Shown here piece by piece: positions 1,951 to 43,330 of a stretch of DNA of 64,000 nucleotides. The position numbers and the translations under genes were made by a program. This DNA is from an uncultured Candidatus Bathyarchaeia archaeon (GTDB lineage Archaea > Thermoproteota > Bathyarchaeia > Bathyarchaeales > Bathyarchaeaceae), in contig CAZEBS010000004.1 in assembly GCA_964510635.1 (NCBI GenBank), positions 1,813 to 65,812 on the forward strand. The letters are read 5' to 3'. Under the pieces are notes generated by a model. That model saw nothing but the letters and a program-made list of their open reading frames with translations, was not told where the DNA came from and made no database searches. Position 1 is the first letter of the stretch. Every line of letters starts with the position of its first letter.

Positions 1951-3231
1951 TCATTCATAGGCGAATAGCCACAGGTCTGCCACAACAAACACTTTGTCTT
2001 CTGCTGAGACTGGTGGAAAAGCATAATGTTCAAAAACATGTCTCAACCGTATGCTTCCATTGCCTGCGTCAAGACAGTACAAGTTATGGTTCTCAGTAAC
2101 GTAAAGTACGTTATCTAACATGGTCGCACCAACAAAATTCCAAGAAGTTTCGTTGGTAATTGGGTATGTCCATATTCTGTCGCCATCTGAAAGGTCTAAC
2201 GACAATATTGTTGCATTTGATGGTTGTGTTCCGTTGTAACTGACGATTACGCTCCAGAAAACTTCTTGATGCTGAGGGTCAGCTTGAACAGAGTATGCTT
2301 TCACATCTAGCACCGCTGTTTCTGTAGTGTTCTGGTCGTCAGCAGGTGTTTTCCAGTTCAAACTACCGTCTATAAAGTCTACTGCATACAAGTAGCCGTC
2401 TTCGGCTCCAAACATTACCATTCCATTTGATACTGTTGGCTGAAACATTCTAGCTCCTACATCAAAGCTCCAAGCTTCCTTTCCAGAAGATGCATCTACA
2501 CATAGAAGGATTTGTCCGTCTTCATGGTCCTCAAGTGGACTATAGTTCCAAAACAACACCTTGTCGTAGGCGGCAACTGGAGATTTGCTGTAGCTTCCTA
2601 GAACAGCCCACAAAGTACTCCCGTCGTTGAGGCTGACACGGGAACCATCCATGATATAGACGTAATCGCTTTCAGGCGCTGATGTGCTTGCGTTGACGGG
2701 CCTAGCGCCAAAATACGAAGAATAGTTCCATAACAGGTCTCCAGTATACGCATCATACACAGCAATGCCATTTTGTTCCGCAAACACTTTCCCGTCTGCA
2801 ACAAAGAATTCAGGAGCCCATTTATAGCCGTAACTGGTGCTTACTGGTGCCTGGTACGACAGCTCCACCTCGCCAGTATCCGTGTCCAATCGGTTCACCA
2901 CTGAGCCTCTGGTGCCAACATACAATTTGCCATCATAAAGTTCAAGGGGCAAACCATTATTCGAATAACCGCCTATGCTAGCGTTCCAAAGCGATTTCCC
3001 GCTCTCTGCATCAAAACAGTACACGTTAGCCCATGCATCAGAAGAAAAAACCTTCCCGTCAGCAACAGCAAAATCGGAGGCAAAACTTTCGATGTCAGTT
3101 TGCCACAAAATTCTTGGTGTTGACTCGGTTGAGTCGGTTAGATGCCCCCTCTCGTATAAAATTGACAACGAGGCTGAACCAACAATAAGAATCAACATCA
3201 CTGCAATAAACAATGAAGAACTTCGGTTCAA
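1951..3231 (-). CDS. membrane-anchored PQQ-like beta-propeller repeat protein
   Basis: N-terminal TM helix (LFIAVMLILIVGSASL). Repeated DGKV/DGKLY...G..LW blades (ADGKVFSSD, YDGKLYVGT, ADGKVFAEQ, GYLYAVD...GSLNW, LYCLDAGNG). Confidence 0.7.
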   Translation of the reverse strand: MNRSSSLFIAVMLILIVGSASLSILYERGHLTDSTESTPRILWQTDIESFASDFAVADGKVFSSDAWANVYCFDAESGKSLWNASIGGYSNNGLPLELYDGKLYVGTRGSVVNRLDTDTGEVELSYQAPVSTSYGYKWAPEFFVADGKVFAEQNGIAVYDAYTGDLLWNYSSYFGARPVNASTSAPESDYVYIMDGSRVSLNDGSTLWAVLGSYSKSPVAAYDKVLFWNYSPLEDHEDGQILLCVDASSGKEAWSFDVGARMFQPTVSNGMVMFGAEDGYLYAVDFIDGSLNWKTPADDQNTTETAVLDVKAYSVQADPQHQEVFWSVIVSYNGTQPSNATILSLDLSDGDRIWTYPITNETSWNFVGATMLDNVLYVTENHNLYCLDAGNGSIRLRHVFEHYAFPPVSAEDKVFVVADLWLFAYE

Positions 3232-36544: not shown

Positions 36545-39274
36545 TTATTTCTTCTTGAAGATGCAGCAGTATAGTCCGATGATTAGTACGACGACAACGA
36601 GTATTATGATGACGAGGTCGATTGTCTGGTATGCTGGAACTTCTGGGCAAGTGGTATCTGGGTATTGTGGAAGCATGTTGATAGTCCGTTGAGCAGCATC
36701 AGCAGCAATCTCCTCAGCAGTAGGAACGTATGGATATTGTGGAAGCATGGCAATAGTTCTCGCAGCAGATTCAGCAGCAATTTCCTCTACAGTTGGAGAC
36801 TCCGGATATTCTGGCGCTGGATCTACAACAAAACTGGTTGTGGCGTATGAAGCATAGTAGGCTTTGGAGCCCTCGAATATCACGGTTACCTCGTACACTC
36901 CGACAATTGTAGGAGCCCATACCATCTTGAAAGCGCCAGTACTATCGGCTGTAACAGTCTCTGAGTAATAGTCGCCATTCGGGTCTTGTATTTTCACAAA
37001 TACGTCAACACCTTGGACGTCAGCTGGACACTCAAACTGCTTGTACACGTATAGCATCCAATCGCTCATGCTTTCATCGGATACAGCGGGAACACCGTCT
37101 CGGAAACGTACTCTTATATTAGAATCCTCAGTGCCTGGTGATACATCAGTCACCTTGCCCTGTATTAGTATACTATTTCCCTGTGTGATAACATTGTTTT
37201 GAATCCATGCTTTGGTGTGGCTTGCGCCTCTACCGATAGCATACATACGCTGGTCGTAGGTATCCATTGTTGCTATTATGCTGTCGCCAATAATTGCTAA
37301 TCCTCCCCAGCCAGTTTGACGGAACAAACCATTGGCTCTCCATATTACATCTCCAGTTATAGCGTTGAGACAAAGGAACGGTGCACCGCGGGGTAACGGT
37401 TGATTGCCAGAGTGTTCTGCAGAGCCTACGTACAGTTTGCCTTCGGTAATGAAAGTTATTCCGAGCCACCAATTACTCGAAAAGGGGCTTTCAGTGTAGG
37501 GGTCTCTTGCCTCGTATGTCCATAGCAAGTCGCCTGTCGTAACATTGTAACAGTATAGTATTCCTGCGACTCCACAAGCGTAGAGCCTGCCATAAGCAAT
37601 CAGATGAGACGTAAGCATTGTGCCTTCATATATGTCCAAATAATACTGTGAGTCACTTTGAGTCCAAATCATCTCTCCTGTTTCAAGGCTAACACCGTAA
37701 TGTTTTCTAAGCTCTTTTGACCATAGAACACCAACTTTGTCTTCTGCACTCCAAGCTGCCCAGCTTATACTTTGGTTGCCTGAAATCCAATCAGAAGGAG
37801 GCAGCCATGATTCATTGAATAGCACTTGTCCTTCTTCTCCCTGCTTCAAGCTTATGCCCCAGACCTGGACGCTACTTGGTACAACCCCGCCCCCAAAACC
37901 ACCGACAAGGTTTGAACCAATTACTCTGTCGCCAAAAAAGCTTGCTACGACGCTTCCCTGTAATTCTGCTGGTATCGTTACGTTCCAATCCCATCCTTCT
38001 GCGGCTGCTTCTGTGTCTGCTCCCGCATCAAATGTCATTCCGTTGACTACGTTTCCCCAGCTACCGCCGTATTCATAATATCCTGTGGCTGACGCTGCTA
38101 TAAATGAAGGCATGCTCCACAGACCCATCCAACCATTTTGATCGGTATGTAGTACATAGAGTGCGCCATTGGAATCGCGTAAAGTGGTGCCTGACGGAAC
38201 ATTCTCAATAGTGAACGCCCAGTTTCCAGTGTAGGCGTTAAACGCAGTCCAAGTTCCTGGCAGATATGTACCTGTAAAGAAATCATATCCACCTTCTGTT
38301 ACCCATAAGTACGCATAAGCGCCCATGTAGTTGAAGCCTTGATAGTATAATATTTGCGCGAAAGCTATCGTTTGGTTGTCCATAAAAACCTTAGTCCAAA
38401 GTTCTTCTCCAGTATGTAGGTCTACGCAGTGATATTCAACTGGCTCAGGAAAACTGCCCAATATCATGCCAGCCGCATAGGTCGCGTAGTAAAGTTTTCC
38501 TGCAATGATAAATCGGCTGCTCCATATGCCCTCGTATGCGTCTCCTGTTCCGAATCCAACAGCGCCTTGGTTTATTGATTCAGCAAGGCCTACATCTCCT
38601 CCAACGAGTCCTCCCATGGTTAGTGGCTCTGTCCACAATATATGTGCAGTTTCTGGTGCATATTCGTTGTTAGTAGCGATGCGGTTATCCGGATCGTACG
38701 GCCAGCTTCCTGCGATTGTGTACCATTCTCTAGCTTGTGAGTCTATTGGGCGAGTCCAGTATTCGGCTGGAAGTGGCACGCCAGGATAATCGGGTATCGG
38801 TTCCGCTTGTACGACAAGCGTTAACTCTTCGCTGTCACTAGCCATATAAAGTGTGTGAGTTTCAACGGGACCAAACATAGTAAATCCAGTAAAGTTGTAC
38901 CACTGCTCTGGGAAATGGGTTTGCAAAACATATTCGCCAACCATGTTAGGCGTATAAATATCGCCTGCTCCACCTGTTGAGTCGGTTTCGTAAGGTCCTA
39001 ACGTTTCAGTATTGCCGTTTGGAAGTTTAACTGTTACAGTTATGTCCTTCCAACTTTCATATGCGAGAGTAAGTGGGTCTGTAATTCCGAAGTGCAGCAG
39101 AACGTCTTGTCCAACACCAACAGGATTAGGGTTAGCACCAACGAAGGCATAGGTTTCTTTCGTTTCCGTTTCCTGTGCGTTAGTGATTGGTAAAGAAATT
39201 AACATAGCAGATGCTGTTAACACCAGAATTAGCGTGATAGTAGAAATTTTTGTTTTCAAATATAGTTTTTCCAT
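36545..39274 (-). CDS. large secreted PQQ-like beta-propeller protein with Ig-like C-terminal region, tandem repeat and TM anchor
   Basis: 909 aa. Signal anchor. Propeller-type blades (GKLYYATY, GRLYACGVAGILYCYNVTTGDLLWTY, GKLYVGS...GDVIWR). C-terminal LVIIILVVVVLIIGLYCCIFKKK. Confidence 0.75.
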   Translation of the reverse strand: MEKLYLKTKISTITLILVLTASAMLISLPITNAQETETKETYAFVGANPNPVGVGQDVLLHFGITDPLTLAYESWKDITVTVKLPNGNTETLGPYETDSTGGAGDIYTPNMVGEYVLQTHFPEQWYNFTGFTMFGPVETHTLYMASDSEELTLVVQAEPIPDYPGVPLPAEYWTRPIDSQAREWYTIAGSWPYDPDNRIATNNEYAPETAHILWTEPLTMGGLVGGDVGLAESINQGAVGFGTGDAYEGIWSSRFIIAGKLYYATYAAGMILGSFPEPVEYHCVDLHTGEELWTKVFMDNQTIAFAQILYYQGFNYMGAYAYLWVTEGGYDFFTGTYLPGTWTAFNAYTGNWAFTIENVPSGTTLRDSNGALYVLHTDQNGWMGLWSMPSFIAASATGYYEYGGSWGNVVNGMTFDAGADTEAAAEGWDWNVTIPAELQGSVVASFFGDRVIGSNLVGGFGGGVVPSSVQVWGISLKQGEEGQVLFNESWLPPSDWISGNQSISWAAWSAEDKVGVLWSKELRKHYGVSLETGEMIWTQSDSQYYLDIYEGTMLTSHLIAYGRLYACGVAGILYCYNVTTGDLLWTYEARDPYTESPFSSNWWLGITFITEGKLYVGSAEHSGNQPLPRGAPFLCLNAITGDVIWRANGLFRQTGWGGLAIIGDSIIATMDTYDQRMYAIGRGASHTKAWIQNNVITQGNSILIQGKVTDVSPGTEDSNIRVRFRDGVPAVSDESMSDWMLYVYKQFECPADVQGVDVFVKIQDPNGDYYSETVTADSTGAFKMVWAPTIVGVYEVTVIFEGSKAYYASYATTSFVVDPAPEYPESPTVEEIAAESAARTIAMLPQYPYVPTAEEIAADAAQRTINMLPQYPDTTCPEVPAYQTIDLVIIILVVVVLIIGLYCCIFKKK
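36655..36798 (-). repeat. 2 x 72-bp in-frame tandem repeat inside the 909-aa gene
   Basis: ggtattgtggaagcatg at 36661 and atattgtggaagcatgg at 36733. Encodes T(V/A)EEIAA(E/D)(S/A)A(A/Q)RTI(A/N)MLPQYP twice. Confidence 0.75.
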
Positions 39275-39763: not shown

Positions 39764-39885
39764 AAAGAACCCTTACCATAGATGCTTTATAACAATTATG
39801 GGCTAGCATCCATCACCACTGAATCATAAAACGAAGACTGTCAGTAGGGCTTAAATACAAAGAACACCTTGTCTACTCTGTAAGG

Positions 39886-39976
39886 TGCATGGGGAGCTGG
39901 GTGAACCCGGCTGAGAGGACAACTACCTTGTTGTCGACCCTACGAACCTGATCCAGGTAATGCTGGCGGAGGGAAA
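39886..39976 (+). promoter_or_regulatory. TPP (THI-box) riboswitch aptamer
   Basis: GGGGAGC...GGCTGAGAGG-(GACAAC/GTTGTC hairpin)-ACCCTACGAACCTGATCCAGGTAATGCTGGCGGAGGGA reproduces the conserved CUGAGA, ACCUGAUC.GG.UAAUGC..GCG.AGGGA core. A TTAAATA box lies at 39851-39857. Confidence 0.85.
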
Positions 39977-39983
39977 AGAAAAG

Positions 39984-40511
39984 TTGAAAACAAGTAATTA
40001 TAATCTATCAACAAAAATAATTGCAGAGGCAGTTATGTTTGTGGCTCTTGCCACAGTTTTAAGTTTCTTCAAAATTTTTGAGATGCCACAAGGAGGCTCC
40101 GTAACCTTGGCTTCGATGGTGCCGATTCTGTGGCTAGCCATACGGAGAGGACCCATAGTAGGATTATTCGCAGCTATATTGTACGGCGTAGTCCAGCTGG
40201 TAGTTGACCCCAGTGGAGTATATTATCCCGCACAGGCGCTGCTAGATTATCCAGTCGCGTTTGGTTTGCTGGGGCTTGCAGGCTTCTTCCAGAAACATCC
40301 CTTTATTGGCGTAAACGTGGGAATACTCGGGCGTTTTGTGGCCCATTTCTTTTCAGGCATAATCTTCTTTGCTCAGTACACACCAGAAGGAATGCACCCT
40401 GCGATATACTCGGCTGCATACAATGGAGGCTATCTGCTAGCCGAGCTTGTGATAACAATCTACATATTTTACTTGCTGCAAGAAAGCAAAGTGTTGAAAA
40501 TCTACTTGTGA
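39984..40511 (+). CDS. thiT: thiamine transporter ThiT (ECF S-component-like)
   Basis: FKIFEMPQGGSVTLASMVPILWLAIRRGP and six hydrophobic helices. TTG at 39984 lies 9 nt after the GGAGGG at 39969-39974. The track ATG at 39960 sits inside the riboswitch aptamer. Confidence 0.75.
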   Translation: MKTSNYNLSTKIIAEAVMFVALATVLSFFKIFEMPQGGSVTLASMVPILWLAIRRGPIVGLFAAILYGVVQLVVDPSGVYYPAQALLDYPVAFGLLGLAGFFQKHPFIGVNVGILGRFVAHFFSGIIFFAQYTPEGMHPAIYSAAYNGGYLLAELVITIYIFYLLQESKVLKIYL

Positions 40512-40524
40512 GGGAGAAAACAGG

Positions 40525-41529
40525 GTGGGGAAGCTCCCAAACGAAGACCTCAAAAAACTATTGAAATGCATCAAAAAGGATTCTCGTGTGGTTGTTTCGC
40601 CTCAGCTTGGTTTCGACGCTGGAGTCCACATGCTAGACGATGGCAGGTACCTTGTTGTCTCTACAGACCCATGCATTGGAGTTCCTGAAGAGTGGTTCGG
40701 CTGGTTTCTAATCAATTACGTAGCCTCTGACAATGCCCTCTTCGGAGCCAAAACCGAGTTCTGCACAATCAATCTACTGGGGTCCCCATCAACAACACCT
40801 TCAGTTTTCCACAGGACTATGCAGCAAGCATGCGACGCTGCCAACGAACATGGAACAGCTATCGTAACGGGGCACACAGGAACATACGCTGGCGTGTCAA
40901 CTCTGGTTGGAGTATGCACAGGCTACGGTTACGTTGACAAAGAACGGCTGAAAACGCCTGGAGACGCCAGACCAGACGACCACATAGTATGTGTCAAACC
41001 CATCGGCTTAGAAACTGCAGTGAATTTTGCTTTAACCCATGAGACATTGGCTGAAAAACTCTTTGGAACAAAACAAACCAGAAAACTTGCGAAACTTGTT
41101 ACTATGCAAAGTTGCGTTAAAGAGGCGCTGCTCCTCGCGGAAATCGAGGGAGTACATGCTATGCATGATGCCACTGAAGGCGGATTAACGGCTGCATTGA
41201 ATGAGATGGCTGAAGCATCAGGTGTGGGCTTCAGGGTTGAGTGGGAGAAAATCTTGTTTACCGAAGAAGTTAAGGATTTGAGAGCATTTTATCGGTTGTC
41301 CGACAAACAGGTGCTGTCTATGTCCTCCACTGGCACGTTCGTGGCTGCTGTCAGTCCTGAAGACAGAAACAGGGTGGAGACGGTTCTGCGACAAAACAGT
41401 ATCGAAGCGAGGTTCATTGGTTCCTTCACAGAAGATATGGAGCGTGTTCTAGTCAAAAGCGGGGAAGAAGCAATGTTTCCGAGGACTGCTGATGATCCCT
41501 ACGCTAAAGTAATGTCTGGAGAATTGTAG
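40525..41529 (+). CDS. AIR-synthase-related (PurM/HypE/ThiL superfamily) protein
   Basis: MGKLPNEDLKKLL, GFDAGVHMLDDGRYLVVSTDP, NYVASDNALFGAKTEF and AMHDATEGGL. GTG start 13 nt after the thiT stop. Confidence 0.75.
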   Translation: MGKLPNEDLKKLLKCIKKDSRVVVSPQLGFDAGVHMLDDGRYLVVSTDPCIGVPEEWFGWFLINYVASDNALFGAKTEFCTINLLGSPSTTPSVFHRTMQQACDAANEHGTAIVTGHTGTYAGVSTLVGVCTGYGYVDKERLKTPGDARPDDHIVCVKPIGLETAVNFALTHETLAEKLFGTKQTRKLAKLVTMQSCVKEALLLAEIEGVHAMHDATEGGLTAALNEMAEASGVGFRVEWEKILFTEEVKDLRAFYRLSDKQVLSMSSTGTFVAAVSPEDRNRVETVLRQNSIEARFIGSFTEDMERVLVKSGEEAMFPRTADDPYAKVMSGEL

Positions 41530-41558: not shown

Positions 41559-42359
41559 CTATTTGTTTACTATGGTAATTTCTTTGCCTACGCTTAGTTT
41601 CATTCCGTCAAAGGCGGCTACTGTCGTGACACCTGTTTTTTCTTCGATCAGTTTTATTTCGCGGTTTGGTCCGCTGAAGAGCATTTTCATTCCGAAGTGG
41701 GTTGCTACAGCCATTTCAGGCTTTACAGCTTCAACGATTTTTATGGCTTCTTCTGGTGTCATGTGCCCTGTCCATGGGCTTCCTAGGGGTCTCATAACGG
41801 AAATGATAAGGATTCTAACGCCCATGTATTCTTTTTCGATGCCTTCGAAATATTCTGTGTCCGCTGTGTATCCTATGGCTCCGACCTCTGGGATTTCGAA
41901 CCTGAAACCAACCGATTCGGAGTCAGTGTGTTTGGCTTCTGTTGCAACTATTTCTGTGTCGCCCACCGTGAAGTTGACTCCAGGCTTAACGGTTATCACA
42001 TTTTCTATCATCCGTTGATGGTATGTGGAGATTGCGGGTCCAGTTTCTGCGTTTCCGAGGAGGATGTTGGGGGGTGCAGCTATTACTCCCCGTTTCTTTA
42101 GCATGCCTCGGGTCATGGCTTCAATTAGGATTTCTGCGTCGCTGTAGTGGTCTGGGTGTCTGTGAGAAACCAGCACTGCCTCAAGTTTTTGGGGATTCAA
42201 GCCCGCGTTTAGGGAGTATATGAGGGCGCCTGGACCTGGGTCAACGTGGATGTTGAGGCGGTTGGATAGGATGCGTATTCCTCCAGTTTGTCTTTTCTGG
42301 GTTATGGTGGTGAATCTTCCGCCTCCTGTTCCCAAAAACACAATTTCAGTTTCGCTCAT
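41559..42359 (-). CDS. MBL-fold metallo-hydrolase
   Basis: IVFLGTGGG...IHVDPGPG...VLVSHRHPDHYSD (HxHxDH) ...ATHFG. Confidence 0.8.
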   Translation of the reverse strand: MSETEIVFLGTGGGRFTTITQKRQTGGIRILSNRLNIHVDPGPGALIYSLNAGLNPQKLEAVLVSHRHPDHYSDAEILIEAMTRGMLKKRGVIAAPPNILLGNAETGPAISTYHQRMIENVITVKPGVNFTVGDTEIVATEAKHTDSESVGFRFEIPEVGAIGYTADTEYFEGIEKEYMGVRILIISVMRPLGSPWTGHMTPEEAIKIVEAVKPEMAVATHFGMKMLFSGPNREIKLIEEKTGVTTVAAFDGMKLSVGKEITIVNK

Positions 42360-43224: not shown

Positions 43225-43330
43225 GCGGCGGTAGCGAAGTCAGGTCAAACGCGGAGGACTCAAGATCAGCGTCTGATGAGCAATCCTTTCCCATAGGGGT
43301 TCGCAGGTTCGATTCCTGCCCGCCGCACCA
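43225..43330 (+). tRNA. tRNA-Leu(CAA) with an 18-nt canonical 37/38 intron and encoded CCA
   Basis: Acceptor GCGGCGG/CCGCCGC. D arm GCG-AAGTCAGGTCAAA-CGC. Anticodon stem GAGGA/TCCTT with loop CTCAAGA. Long variable arm CCCATAGGGG. T arm GCAGG-TTCGATT-CCTGC. A73 plus CCA. The intron at 43265-43282 forms a textbook BHB (CTCA/TGAG central helix, bulges AGA and CAA, inner TCAG/CTGA). Confidence 0.9.

Follow-up and report, generated by a model that had tools for sequence, protein, structure and literature searches.

A thiamine pyrophosphate riboswitch with an embedded putative ribosome-binding site ahead of thiT and a candidate thiamine-pathway kinase gene in Bathyarchaeia

The locus described here raises two questions, namely how a thiamine pyrophosphate (TPP) riboswitch may act in an archaeon, and what may be the function of the PurM-superfamily protein that is encoded behind it. 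The locus is on the forward strand of a 64,000-nt stretch of DNA from an uncultured Candidatus Bathyarchaeia archaeon (GenBank assembly GCA_964510635.1, contig CAZEBS010000004.1), which is referred to as the window and within which all coordinates are counted, unless they follow a locus number (L). It contains two genes, thiT and, 13 nt past the thiT stop codon, the gene of a 334-residue protein, named X (40525-41529, + strand); the next gene downstream of X is on the opposite strand. Together, thiT and X form a two-gene operon, whose compact leader (~105 nt) is almost wholly TPP aptamer. The main new result of this analysis is that relatives of X adjoin, or are fused with, thiamine-phosphate synthases and occur with TPP riboswitches. 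The complete account, in which the riboswitch would occlude the Shine–Dalgarno (SD) sequence of thiT and X would be a kinase of a thiamine compound, likely a ThiL analogue, is one that we modestly favor.

That the leader RNA is a TPP aptamer is virtually certain. The Rfam model RF00059 matches 39880-39993 (+) with 58.5 bits (E = 6.6e-9 for the whole 64 kb, both strands), which is above the curated gathering score of 54.3 bits and bears out a previous reading made from the letters of the window (the sequence-only reading); the only other Rfam match in the window is an intron-containing tRNA. All conserved THI-box elements of that reading are present, being GGGGAGC (39891-39897), GCTGAGA (39910-39916), GACCC and GAACCTGATCCAGGTAATGCTGGCGGAGGGA ending at 39974, together with the P3 hairpin GACAAC/GTTGTC and the upstream box TTAAATA. 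The ligand-contacting motifs CUGAGA (J3-2) and ACCUGAUC...UAAU...GCGnAGGGA (P4/P5) are found in the window and are invariant over 71 distinct homologous leaders. When the TPP secondary structure is laid over the alignment of these leaders, 93.6% of the cells are paired and compensatory changes are seen at nine pairs, none of 500 shuffles reaching the observed values; in a control in which the 3' partners were slid by 1-3 columns, pairing falls to 32-55%. P3 covaries at five of its six pairs, P2a covaries too, and 11 sequences show an exchange of A-U and G-C pairs in P5. The homologous leaders score 55-74 bits with RF00059, and 10 further loci checked with Rfam are also above the threshold.

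The promoter has an archaeal appearance, with an A/T content of 86-94% at positions -40 to -34 relative to the GGGG and an A-rich run at -46 to -42 in 70 homologous leaders. Because of the TATA box at 39851-39857 and the usual archaeal distance from TATA box to start, we infer that transcription starts near 39880, ~11 nt upstream of the GGGG. A small upstream ORF from the ATG at 39889 was considered and rejected, as this ATG is missing in the close relatives L012 and L046.

The host of the unit is archaeal, as had been read from the sequence, and is of the class Bathyarchaeia; a protein identical to X, and close relatives of it, occur in Bathyarchaeota/Bathyarchaeum assemblies. A scan of one genome per species yielded 80 loci of X (53-86% identity), nearly all labelled Bathyarchaeia. 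By motif search and tblastn, the THI element, thiT and X follow each other on one strand in 70 of these loci, and Rfam adds one more (L052), giving 71 of the 80. Seven loci are truncated by a contig edge before the expected position of the element is reached, each of them retaining a fragment of thiT or of the KaiC-like gene, and among the 73 informative species loci the order riboswitch-thiT-(KaiC-like ATPase)-X is thus found in 71. X is the last gene of the operon in all Bathyarchaeia loci. The KaiC-like protein, a 235-residue single-domain ATPase (PF06745), is encoded between thiT and X in 38 of the 80 loci (for example L010:4276-4983) and is 77-92% identical among them, a conservation far above that of ThiT or X; no such gene was found in a search across the window.

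The first gene, which had been taken for thiT, encodes a 183-residue ORF in the ORF list and is ThiT-like, with a PF09515 match of 157 bits (residues 22-176) and a TIGR02357 score of 127.4 bits, above the equivalog cut-off of 108.45. By these profile matches the gene is thiT, encoding the thiamine-specific S component of an energy-coupling factor (ECF) transporter. The energising module EcfAA'T was looked for within the operon only, and none was found there. In the two remaining informative loci, ThiT is replaced by another, unannotated membrane protein and there is no riboswitch (L036 and L042, two of the 80 loci). This protein of 196 residues (L036:4111-4701, L042:4116-4700) has no Pfam or NCBIfam match and is 32-40% identical to S13, an ECF-S-like protein (weak PF07155) that is encoded behind TPP riboswitches upstream of X in other loci (L119:2103-2576, L135:4783-5310, L169:2903-3568). 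In all probability this protein is an S component, hitherto undescribed, that serves thiamine or one of its precursors.

Concerning the mode of action of the leader, the only SD-like sequence upstream of thiT is the aptamer's own 3' part, in agreement with the sequence-only reading. The GGAGGG of that reading does lie within the aptamer, at 39968-39973 rather than 39969-39974, and the TTG codon that it pointed out (39984-39986) is the real start, at a spacing of 10 nt past GGAGGG and not 9. The ATG at 39960 from the ORF list is inside the aptamer, as was stated, and falls in the P5 loop; it is rejected as the thiT start, since in homologous leaders the start codon is 6-11 nt past GGAGG, in agreement with the TTG at 39984. 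Such a spacing of the first in-frame start (mode 8 nt) is found in 64 of 66 leaders, the identity of the start codon being variable (ATG in 31, GTG in 20 and TTG in 15). The variable position of GCGnAGGGA is a G in 69 of the 71 leaders, thereby forming GGAGG; the Rfam consensus has a "u" at this position, as the pairing partner of the G in CCUG. Three bacterial-type riboswitches ahead of X homologues have a T at this position, followed by intrinsic terminators of the hairpin-plus-oligo-T type, and two archaeal-type riboswitches (L119 and L135) again have GGAGGGA, with a start ~9 nt later. Because the archaeal-type leaders have a G where the terminator-bearing bacterial-type ones have a T, the G of GGAGG seems to be under selection as a component of a ribosome-binding site, which doubles as the 3' strand of P4.

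In the minimum-free-energy fold of 39880-40000, the AGGU at 39883-39886 pairs with the ACCU of P4, and GGAGG is left single-stranded. An AGGU is present no more than 16 nt upstream of the GGGG in 49 of the 71 leaders, and 42 of the 71 are predicted to fold optimally with the AGGU:ACCU pairing. The folds with P4 forced and with GGAGG free differ by 1.0 ± 2.0 kcal/mol; in the folding model, such near-equal energies are what a switch tipped by its ligand would need. Control at translation initiation, by TPP-dependent occlusion of the ribosome-binding site, is the likely mode of action. Plentiful TPP would lock the aptamer, such that GGAGG is held within helix P4. In many other loci there is a P1 of 4-5 bp (GGUUU/AAACC), the 3' strand of which extends as far as the start codon, and in these relatives the spacer that precedes thiT would also be held. 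Translation of thiT would then be blocked, and that of X, starting 13 nt after thiT, would fall too. When TPP is scarce, base pairing of the 5' AGGU with ACCU could take the place of P4, and GGAGG would be released.

The following points weigh against this account. The P1 of the window fails the model, four of its five pairs being non-canonical in the Rfam alignment (a substitute P1 partner was sought in the window and not found), and the clade to which the window belongs lacks this helix, by which switching normally proceeds. The ACCU is invariant across the leaders, so that the AGGU:ACCU pairing gives no covariation signal. The use of SD sequences in this lineage is also no more than presumed: of 74 homologous loci, just 10 have a strict SD-like motif upstream of X, although less stringent cores (AGG or GGT) are common there. 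It could be argued from the missing P1 and the sparse SD motifs, and from how little is known of the mechanisms of archaeal riboswitches, that the riboswitch, though real, exerts its effect through transcription elongation or through the stability of the mRNA. This is unlikely, since no terminator, hairpin or T-run is seen between the aptamer and the thiT start, where there are merely 10 A-rich nt, and since the constant spacing of GGAGG and start codon and the selected G would otherwise be hard to explain.

The second gene was proposed to belong to the aminoimidazole ribonucleotide (AIR) synthase/PurM superfamily, and X indeed matches AIRS (PF00586, 41.8 bits) and AIRS_C (PF02769, 82.9 bits). 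It is below every NCBIfam equivalog cut-off, with 82.6 bits versus 125 for SelD (TIGR00476), 71.7 versus 184.15 for ThiL (TIGR01379; relatives of X score 76-106) and 71.2 versus 251.6 for HypE (TIGR02124). When a profile of the Bathyarchaeia clade is compared with solved structures, the E values are 7e-14 for HypE, 1e-10 for SelD, 6e-9 for PurM and 3e-4 for ThiL. Asp31, Asp48, Asp69, His117 and Asp215 are invariant across the wider X family, whose signatures are an N-terminal Gly-Lys aligned with Lys20 of SelD, the motif MHDxTEGGL and a C-terminal FP..DPY tail. In HypE, the C-terminal cysteine bears the carbamoyl or cyano group; the C terminus of X (...DDPYAKVMSGEL) is without this cysteine, and X is also without the cysteine or selenocysteine (Sec) that precedes the N-terminal lysine in SelD. 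Judged by its sequence, X is a distinct clade of the PurM superfamily and not a member of the ThiL family. Public annotations of the X family are HypE, hydrogenase maturation factor, HupF and "AIR synthase-related". Five cysteines (Cys50, Cys103, Cys131, Cys156 and Cys197) are invariant in the Bathyarchaeia X proteins; a metal site formed by them was considered and rejected, as they are not conserved in Asgard, Thermococcus and other relatives. An AlphaFold2 model of X, made from a 24-sequence alignment, is poor (mean predicted local distance difference test score of 51.4).

The relatives of X outside the Bathyarchaeia are 28-43% identical to it, and a metagenome scan seeded with such members yielded 80 loci. 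In 27 of these, ThiN is adjacent or fused to X, ThiE is adjacent in eight, and ECF-S-like membrane proteins (PF07155) are adjacent in eight. The ORF L106:5401-7062 is a ThiN-X fusion. In a relative of 42% identity (L170), the order is ThiN, methyltransferase, X and a major facilitator superfamily transporter, and in one of 34% (L088) a stand-alone ThiN gene overlaps X. In Hodarchaeota (L084, 43%), the gene of a KaiC-like ATPase (2299-3009), 68% identical to that of the Bathyarchaeia, is directly upstream of X, and thiB-like (TIGR01254, 179.8 versus a cut-off of 93.4) and thiP-like genes are present ~1.5 kb downstream of X. In Asgardarchaeia (L089, 35%), X is convergent with the gene of a 309-residue ThiN-domain protein, behind which there is a thiB-like gene (TIGR01254, 190.4 versus 93.4); genes of ThiP/ThiQ-like ATP-binding cassette transporters are present too, scoring below their equivalog cut-offs. 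Rfam detects six further TPP riboswitches ahead of X operons among the relatives, and these are followed by thiE-X-thiDN (L116), X-thiD-thiE (L139), X-thiE (L156), S13-methyltransferase-X-thiE (L119 and L135) and S13-X (L169). No hyp or sel genes are seen near X in the neighborhoods of the window and of the Bathyarchaeia loci.

Several other features of these loci are recorded here. Single ORFs of ~545-553 residues, with an N-terminal ThiN (thiamine-phosphate synthase) and an X-family domain, are found at L106, L107, L109, L112 and L145. At L132 (5137-7818), L136, L148 and L155, an ECF S component (PF07155, 100 bits) is encoded right before X, and no TPP riboswitch was detected at these four loci; at L132, a ComB-like 2-phosphosulfolactate phosphatase is encoded after X. 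A UbiE-type S-adenosylmethionine-dependent methyltransferase is encoded directly upstream of X at L119 (2577-3260), L127, L135 and L170 (3341-4111); we know of no methylation step in thiamine salvage.

It is very likely that X is thiamine-related, because its relatives adjoin or are fused with ThiN, adjoin ThiE, are encoded near thiBPQ-like transporters and follow TPP riboswitches. The sequence-only reading had suggested this role, which it would have held refuted had PurM-fold homologues never been linked with thiamine genes or THI boxes; the linkage is provided by the 71 Bathyarchaeia leaders, the ThiN/ThiE adjacency and the six additional riboswitches, and the role is strongly supported by the conserved context in many lineages. 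X probably represents a new family of thiamine-pathway enzymes. It would use ATP to phosphorylate a thiamine compound, such that the vitamin, whether taken up or newly synthesized, is finally present as TPP. Most likely, it would convert thiamine monophosphate (TMP) into TPP, as a functional analogue of ThiL whose recruitment was from the part of the superfamily around HypE and SelD. TMP kinase is the first choice because the operons with hydroxymethylpyrimidine phosphate kinase and TMP synthase lack only a TMP kinase, and the chemistry is plausible because ThiL, a member of the PurM superfamily that phosphorylates TMP, shows that this superfamily can do it. The specific assignment of X as a TMP kinase is nevertheless tentative, as the following points weigh against it. 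When the profile of the wider family is aligned by hhalign with the Escherichia coli proteins, ThiL is the weakest match (3.9e-16, versus 3.9e-23 for HypE and 1.8e-20 for SelD). A TMP kinase alone would leave imported thiamine unconverted, a thiamine kinase being needed too, and in the thiamine operons of bacteria it is usually ThiM, rather than ThiL, that takes the place of X. Moreover, relatives in Thermococcus, Promethearchaeota and Nitrososphaeria, and at L171 and L172, are without a thiamine neighbor. The Thermococcus camini homologue (L081:5205-6999, 40%) overlaps a QueC-like PP-loop ATPase (DUF7411), with no thiamine gene nearby, and from this context the X family may be functionally non-uniform.

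It is also possible, if rather doubtful, that X is a thiamine kinase or pyrophosphokinase, which traps imported thiamine by converting it into TMP or directly into TPP. This would agree with the position of X directly after vitamin-type ECF S components of three families (ThiT, S13 and S16), with the ThiT of the window passing the thiamine-specific equivalog and with transporter-plus-kinase operons being a known trapping design, of which PnuT with thiamine pyrophosphokinase is reportedly an example. The SelD-like Gly-Lys of X is also of relevance here, as the conversion of ATP into AMP by SelD suits diphosphoryl transfer, and the ThiN/ThiE adjacency also fits a eukaryote-like route from TMP via thiamine to TPP. 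However, the fusions of X with ThiN and the thiE-X-thiDN operon are more simply explained by the reaction from TMP to TPP, and to our knowledge no enzyme of the PurM superfamily phosphorylates an alcohol or transfers a diphosphate.

A further alternative is that the substrate of X is a precursor of thiamine or a product of its breakdown. X would then be an analogue of hydroxyethylthiazole kinase that replaces ThiM, or else the enzyme of an ATP-dependent reaction of a pyrimidine or thiazole that is formylated or ring-opened. The activation of amide or formyl oxygens is established chemistry for PurM, PurL and HypE, the recurring UbiE-like methyltransferase beside X hints at chemistry beyond that of a simple kinase, and the riboswitch operons X-thiD-thiE and S13-methyltransferase-X-thiE mirror the classical thiM-thiD-thiE and thiW-thiM-thiE. 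This alternative is improbable, as the partner of X in the window's clade is a ThiT that scores as a transporter of intact thiamine, and as the Bathyarchaeia operon is without ThiE or ThiN, so that no downstream partner is encoded alongside. Finally, it is very improbable that X is unconnected with thiamine, being a maturation enzyme of the HypE or SelD kind that only happens to be encoded on the transcript of thiT, since the features in its favor (the public annotation, HypE as the nearest relative of solved structure, the pairing with a KaiC-like ATPase conserved between Bathyarchaeia and Hodarchaeota, and the PP-loop ATPase beside the Thermococcus homologue) stand against the absence of the HypE and SelD cysteine or Sec residues and of hyp or sel genes nearby, and against the independent recurrence of a thiamine linkage, which is seen in Bathyarchaeia and Asgard archaea as well as in other archaeal contigs and in bacteria, including ThiN gene fusions and the six separate TPP riboswitches.

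Table 1. Features of the riboswitch-thiT-X unit, in window coordinates.
Feature	Position	Strand	Basis or remark
Promoter (inferred, archaeal)	39846-39857	+	A-rich stretch resembling a transcription factor B recognition element, and TATA box TTAAATA at 39851-39857
TPP riboswitch aptamer (THI element)	39880-39993, conserved core 39891-39974	+	RF00059, covariation
AGGU motif, candidate anti-sequestor	39883-39886	+	Predicted pairing with the ACCU strand of P4
SD-like GGAGG	39968-39972	+	AGG at 39970-39972 is the 3' strand of helix P4
thiT, ECF S component, 175 aa from TTG 39984	39984-40511	+	PF09515, TIGR02357
GAGGGAG, SD-like	40510-40516	+	Overlaps the thiT stop; 8 nt upstream of the GTG of the second gene
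X, PurM superfamily ("AIR synthase family"), 334 aa, candidate thiamine-pathway kinase	40525-41529	+	AIRS and AIRS_C, context

The surroundings of the unit in the window are as follows. The gene convergent with X (41559-42359, - strand) encodes a metallo-β-lactamase (MBL)-fold hydrolase and is kept as a neighbor in the seven closest loci only. A conserved gene trio, suggested by MBL-fold genes near X, was considered and rejected, as the MBL genes by X in the window, in Hodarchaeota and in Promethearchaeota are not orthologous; the three proteins have ~30% identity over roughly 50 residues only. Upstream of the unit, a 909-residue ORF (36545-39274, - strand) has an N-terminal signal-like segment, weak pyrroloquinoline quinone/β-propeller matches, a hydrophobic tail and two repeated C-terminal segments of the form EEIAA..AQRTI.MLPQYP, giving it the look of a surface protein. 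The tRNA gene (43225-43327, + strand; Rfam, 48.1 bits) has an insertion of ~21 nt at the anticodon region that resembles an archaeal intron, and ARAGORN reports no tRNA in the window, despite this Rfam match.

Riboswitches are scarce in archaea, and their workings there are barely known. A TPP switch that is kept in more than 70 Bathyarchaeia species, with a ribosome-binding site inside the aptamer, would be a simple model for the control of archaeal translation by RNA. For many archaea, the steps that lead from imported thiamine to TPP have been assigned only in part, and X is a concrete candidate for a missing step. As a tentative proposal, X may found an unrecognized, widespread family of thiamine-pathway kinases within the PurM superfamily, distinct from ThiL, annotated everywhere as HypE or "AIR synthase-related" and, in Bathyarchaeia, under a minimal TPP riboswitch that embeds the SD sequence; if true, this family would supply, in archaea and some bacteria, the missing phosphorylation step or steps from imported thiamine or TMP to TPP. 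A thiamine role for X would also correct the calls of hydrogenase maturation in metabolic reconstructions of these abundant sediment archaea. Bathyarchaeia rely on partners for cofactors (PMC10477458), and because of this dependence their vitamin uptake systems bear on their possible cultivation. For B. tardum, several cofactor deficiencies are noted in the genome paper, thiamine being unmentioned in the paper and its supplement.

When compared with known systems, the riboswitch belongs to a class already described, of which it is a new member that spans its lineage; its design, in which the SD sequence is embedded, is unusually minimal. A TPP riboswitch before thiT is ordinary in Firmicutes (PMC8862789). 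With the bacterial TPP riboswitches (RF00059; those of Escherichia coli thiM and thiC and the Lactococcus lactis thiT leader, PMC8862789), the Bathyarchaeia leader shares the aptamer core from P2 to P5, the ligand motifs and, presumably, the logic by which TPP represses thiamine uptake or synthesis. It differs from them in having no separate expression platform, the SD sequence being in P4 and the start codon ~8 nt later, in a P1 that is short or absent and in a promoter of the archaeal TATA type. The three bacterial riboswitches of X regulons have terminators, and a T where the Bathyarchaeia leader has the G that creates the SD sequence. In archaea, the known riboswitch classes are TPP and fluoride, in sparing use (PMC5473149). 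In the literature we found nothing that links Bathyarchaeia to thiamine riboswitches. Archaeal TPP riboswitches are reportedly restricted to Thermoplasmatales. The class is shared with the Thermoplasmatales riboswitches (Rodionov 2002; McCown 2017, PMC5473149), whereas the lineage differs, being here the Bathyarchaeia with at least 71 species-level genomes.

For X, the literature that was searched likewise holds nothing linking AIR-synthase-like proteins to ThiT, or the X family to thiamine. OarX and other salvage genes (PMC11223231) have been tied to thiamine in the same manner, by clustering and an upstream TPP riboswitch; X is of another protein family. The nearest families by sequence are HypE (carbamoyl dehydratase) and SelD (selenide, water dikinase), from which X differs in scoring below both cut-offs and in being without their Cys or Cys/Sec residues and without hyp or sel neighbors. 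With ThiL (TIGR01379), X shares the superfamily, the two-domain fold and the conserved aspartate motifs for ATP/Mg, and the relatives of X adjoin genes of TMP synthases, as would be expected for the enzyme of the next step. X has MHDxTEGGL where ThiL has DxSDGL, its N-terminal Gly-Lys segment is missing from ThiL, and, unlike ThiL in most bacteria, it is encoded within TPP regulons.

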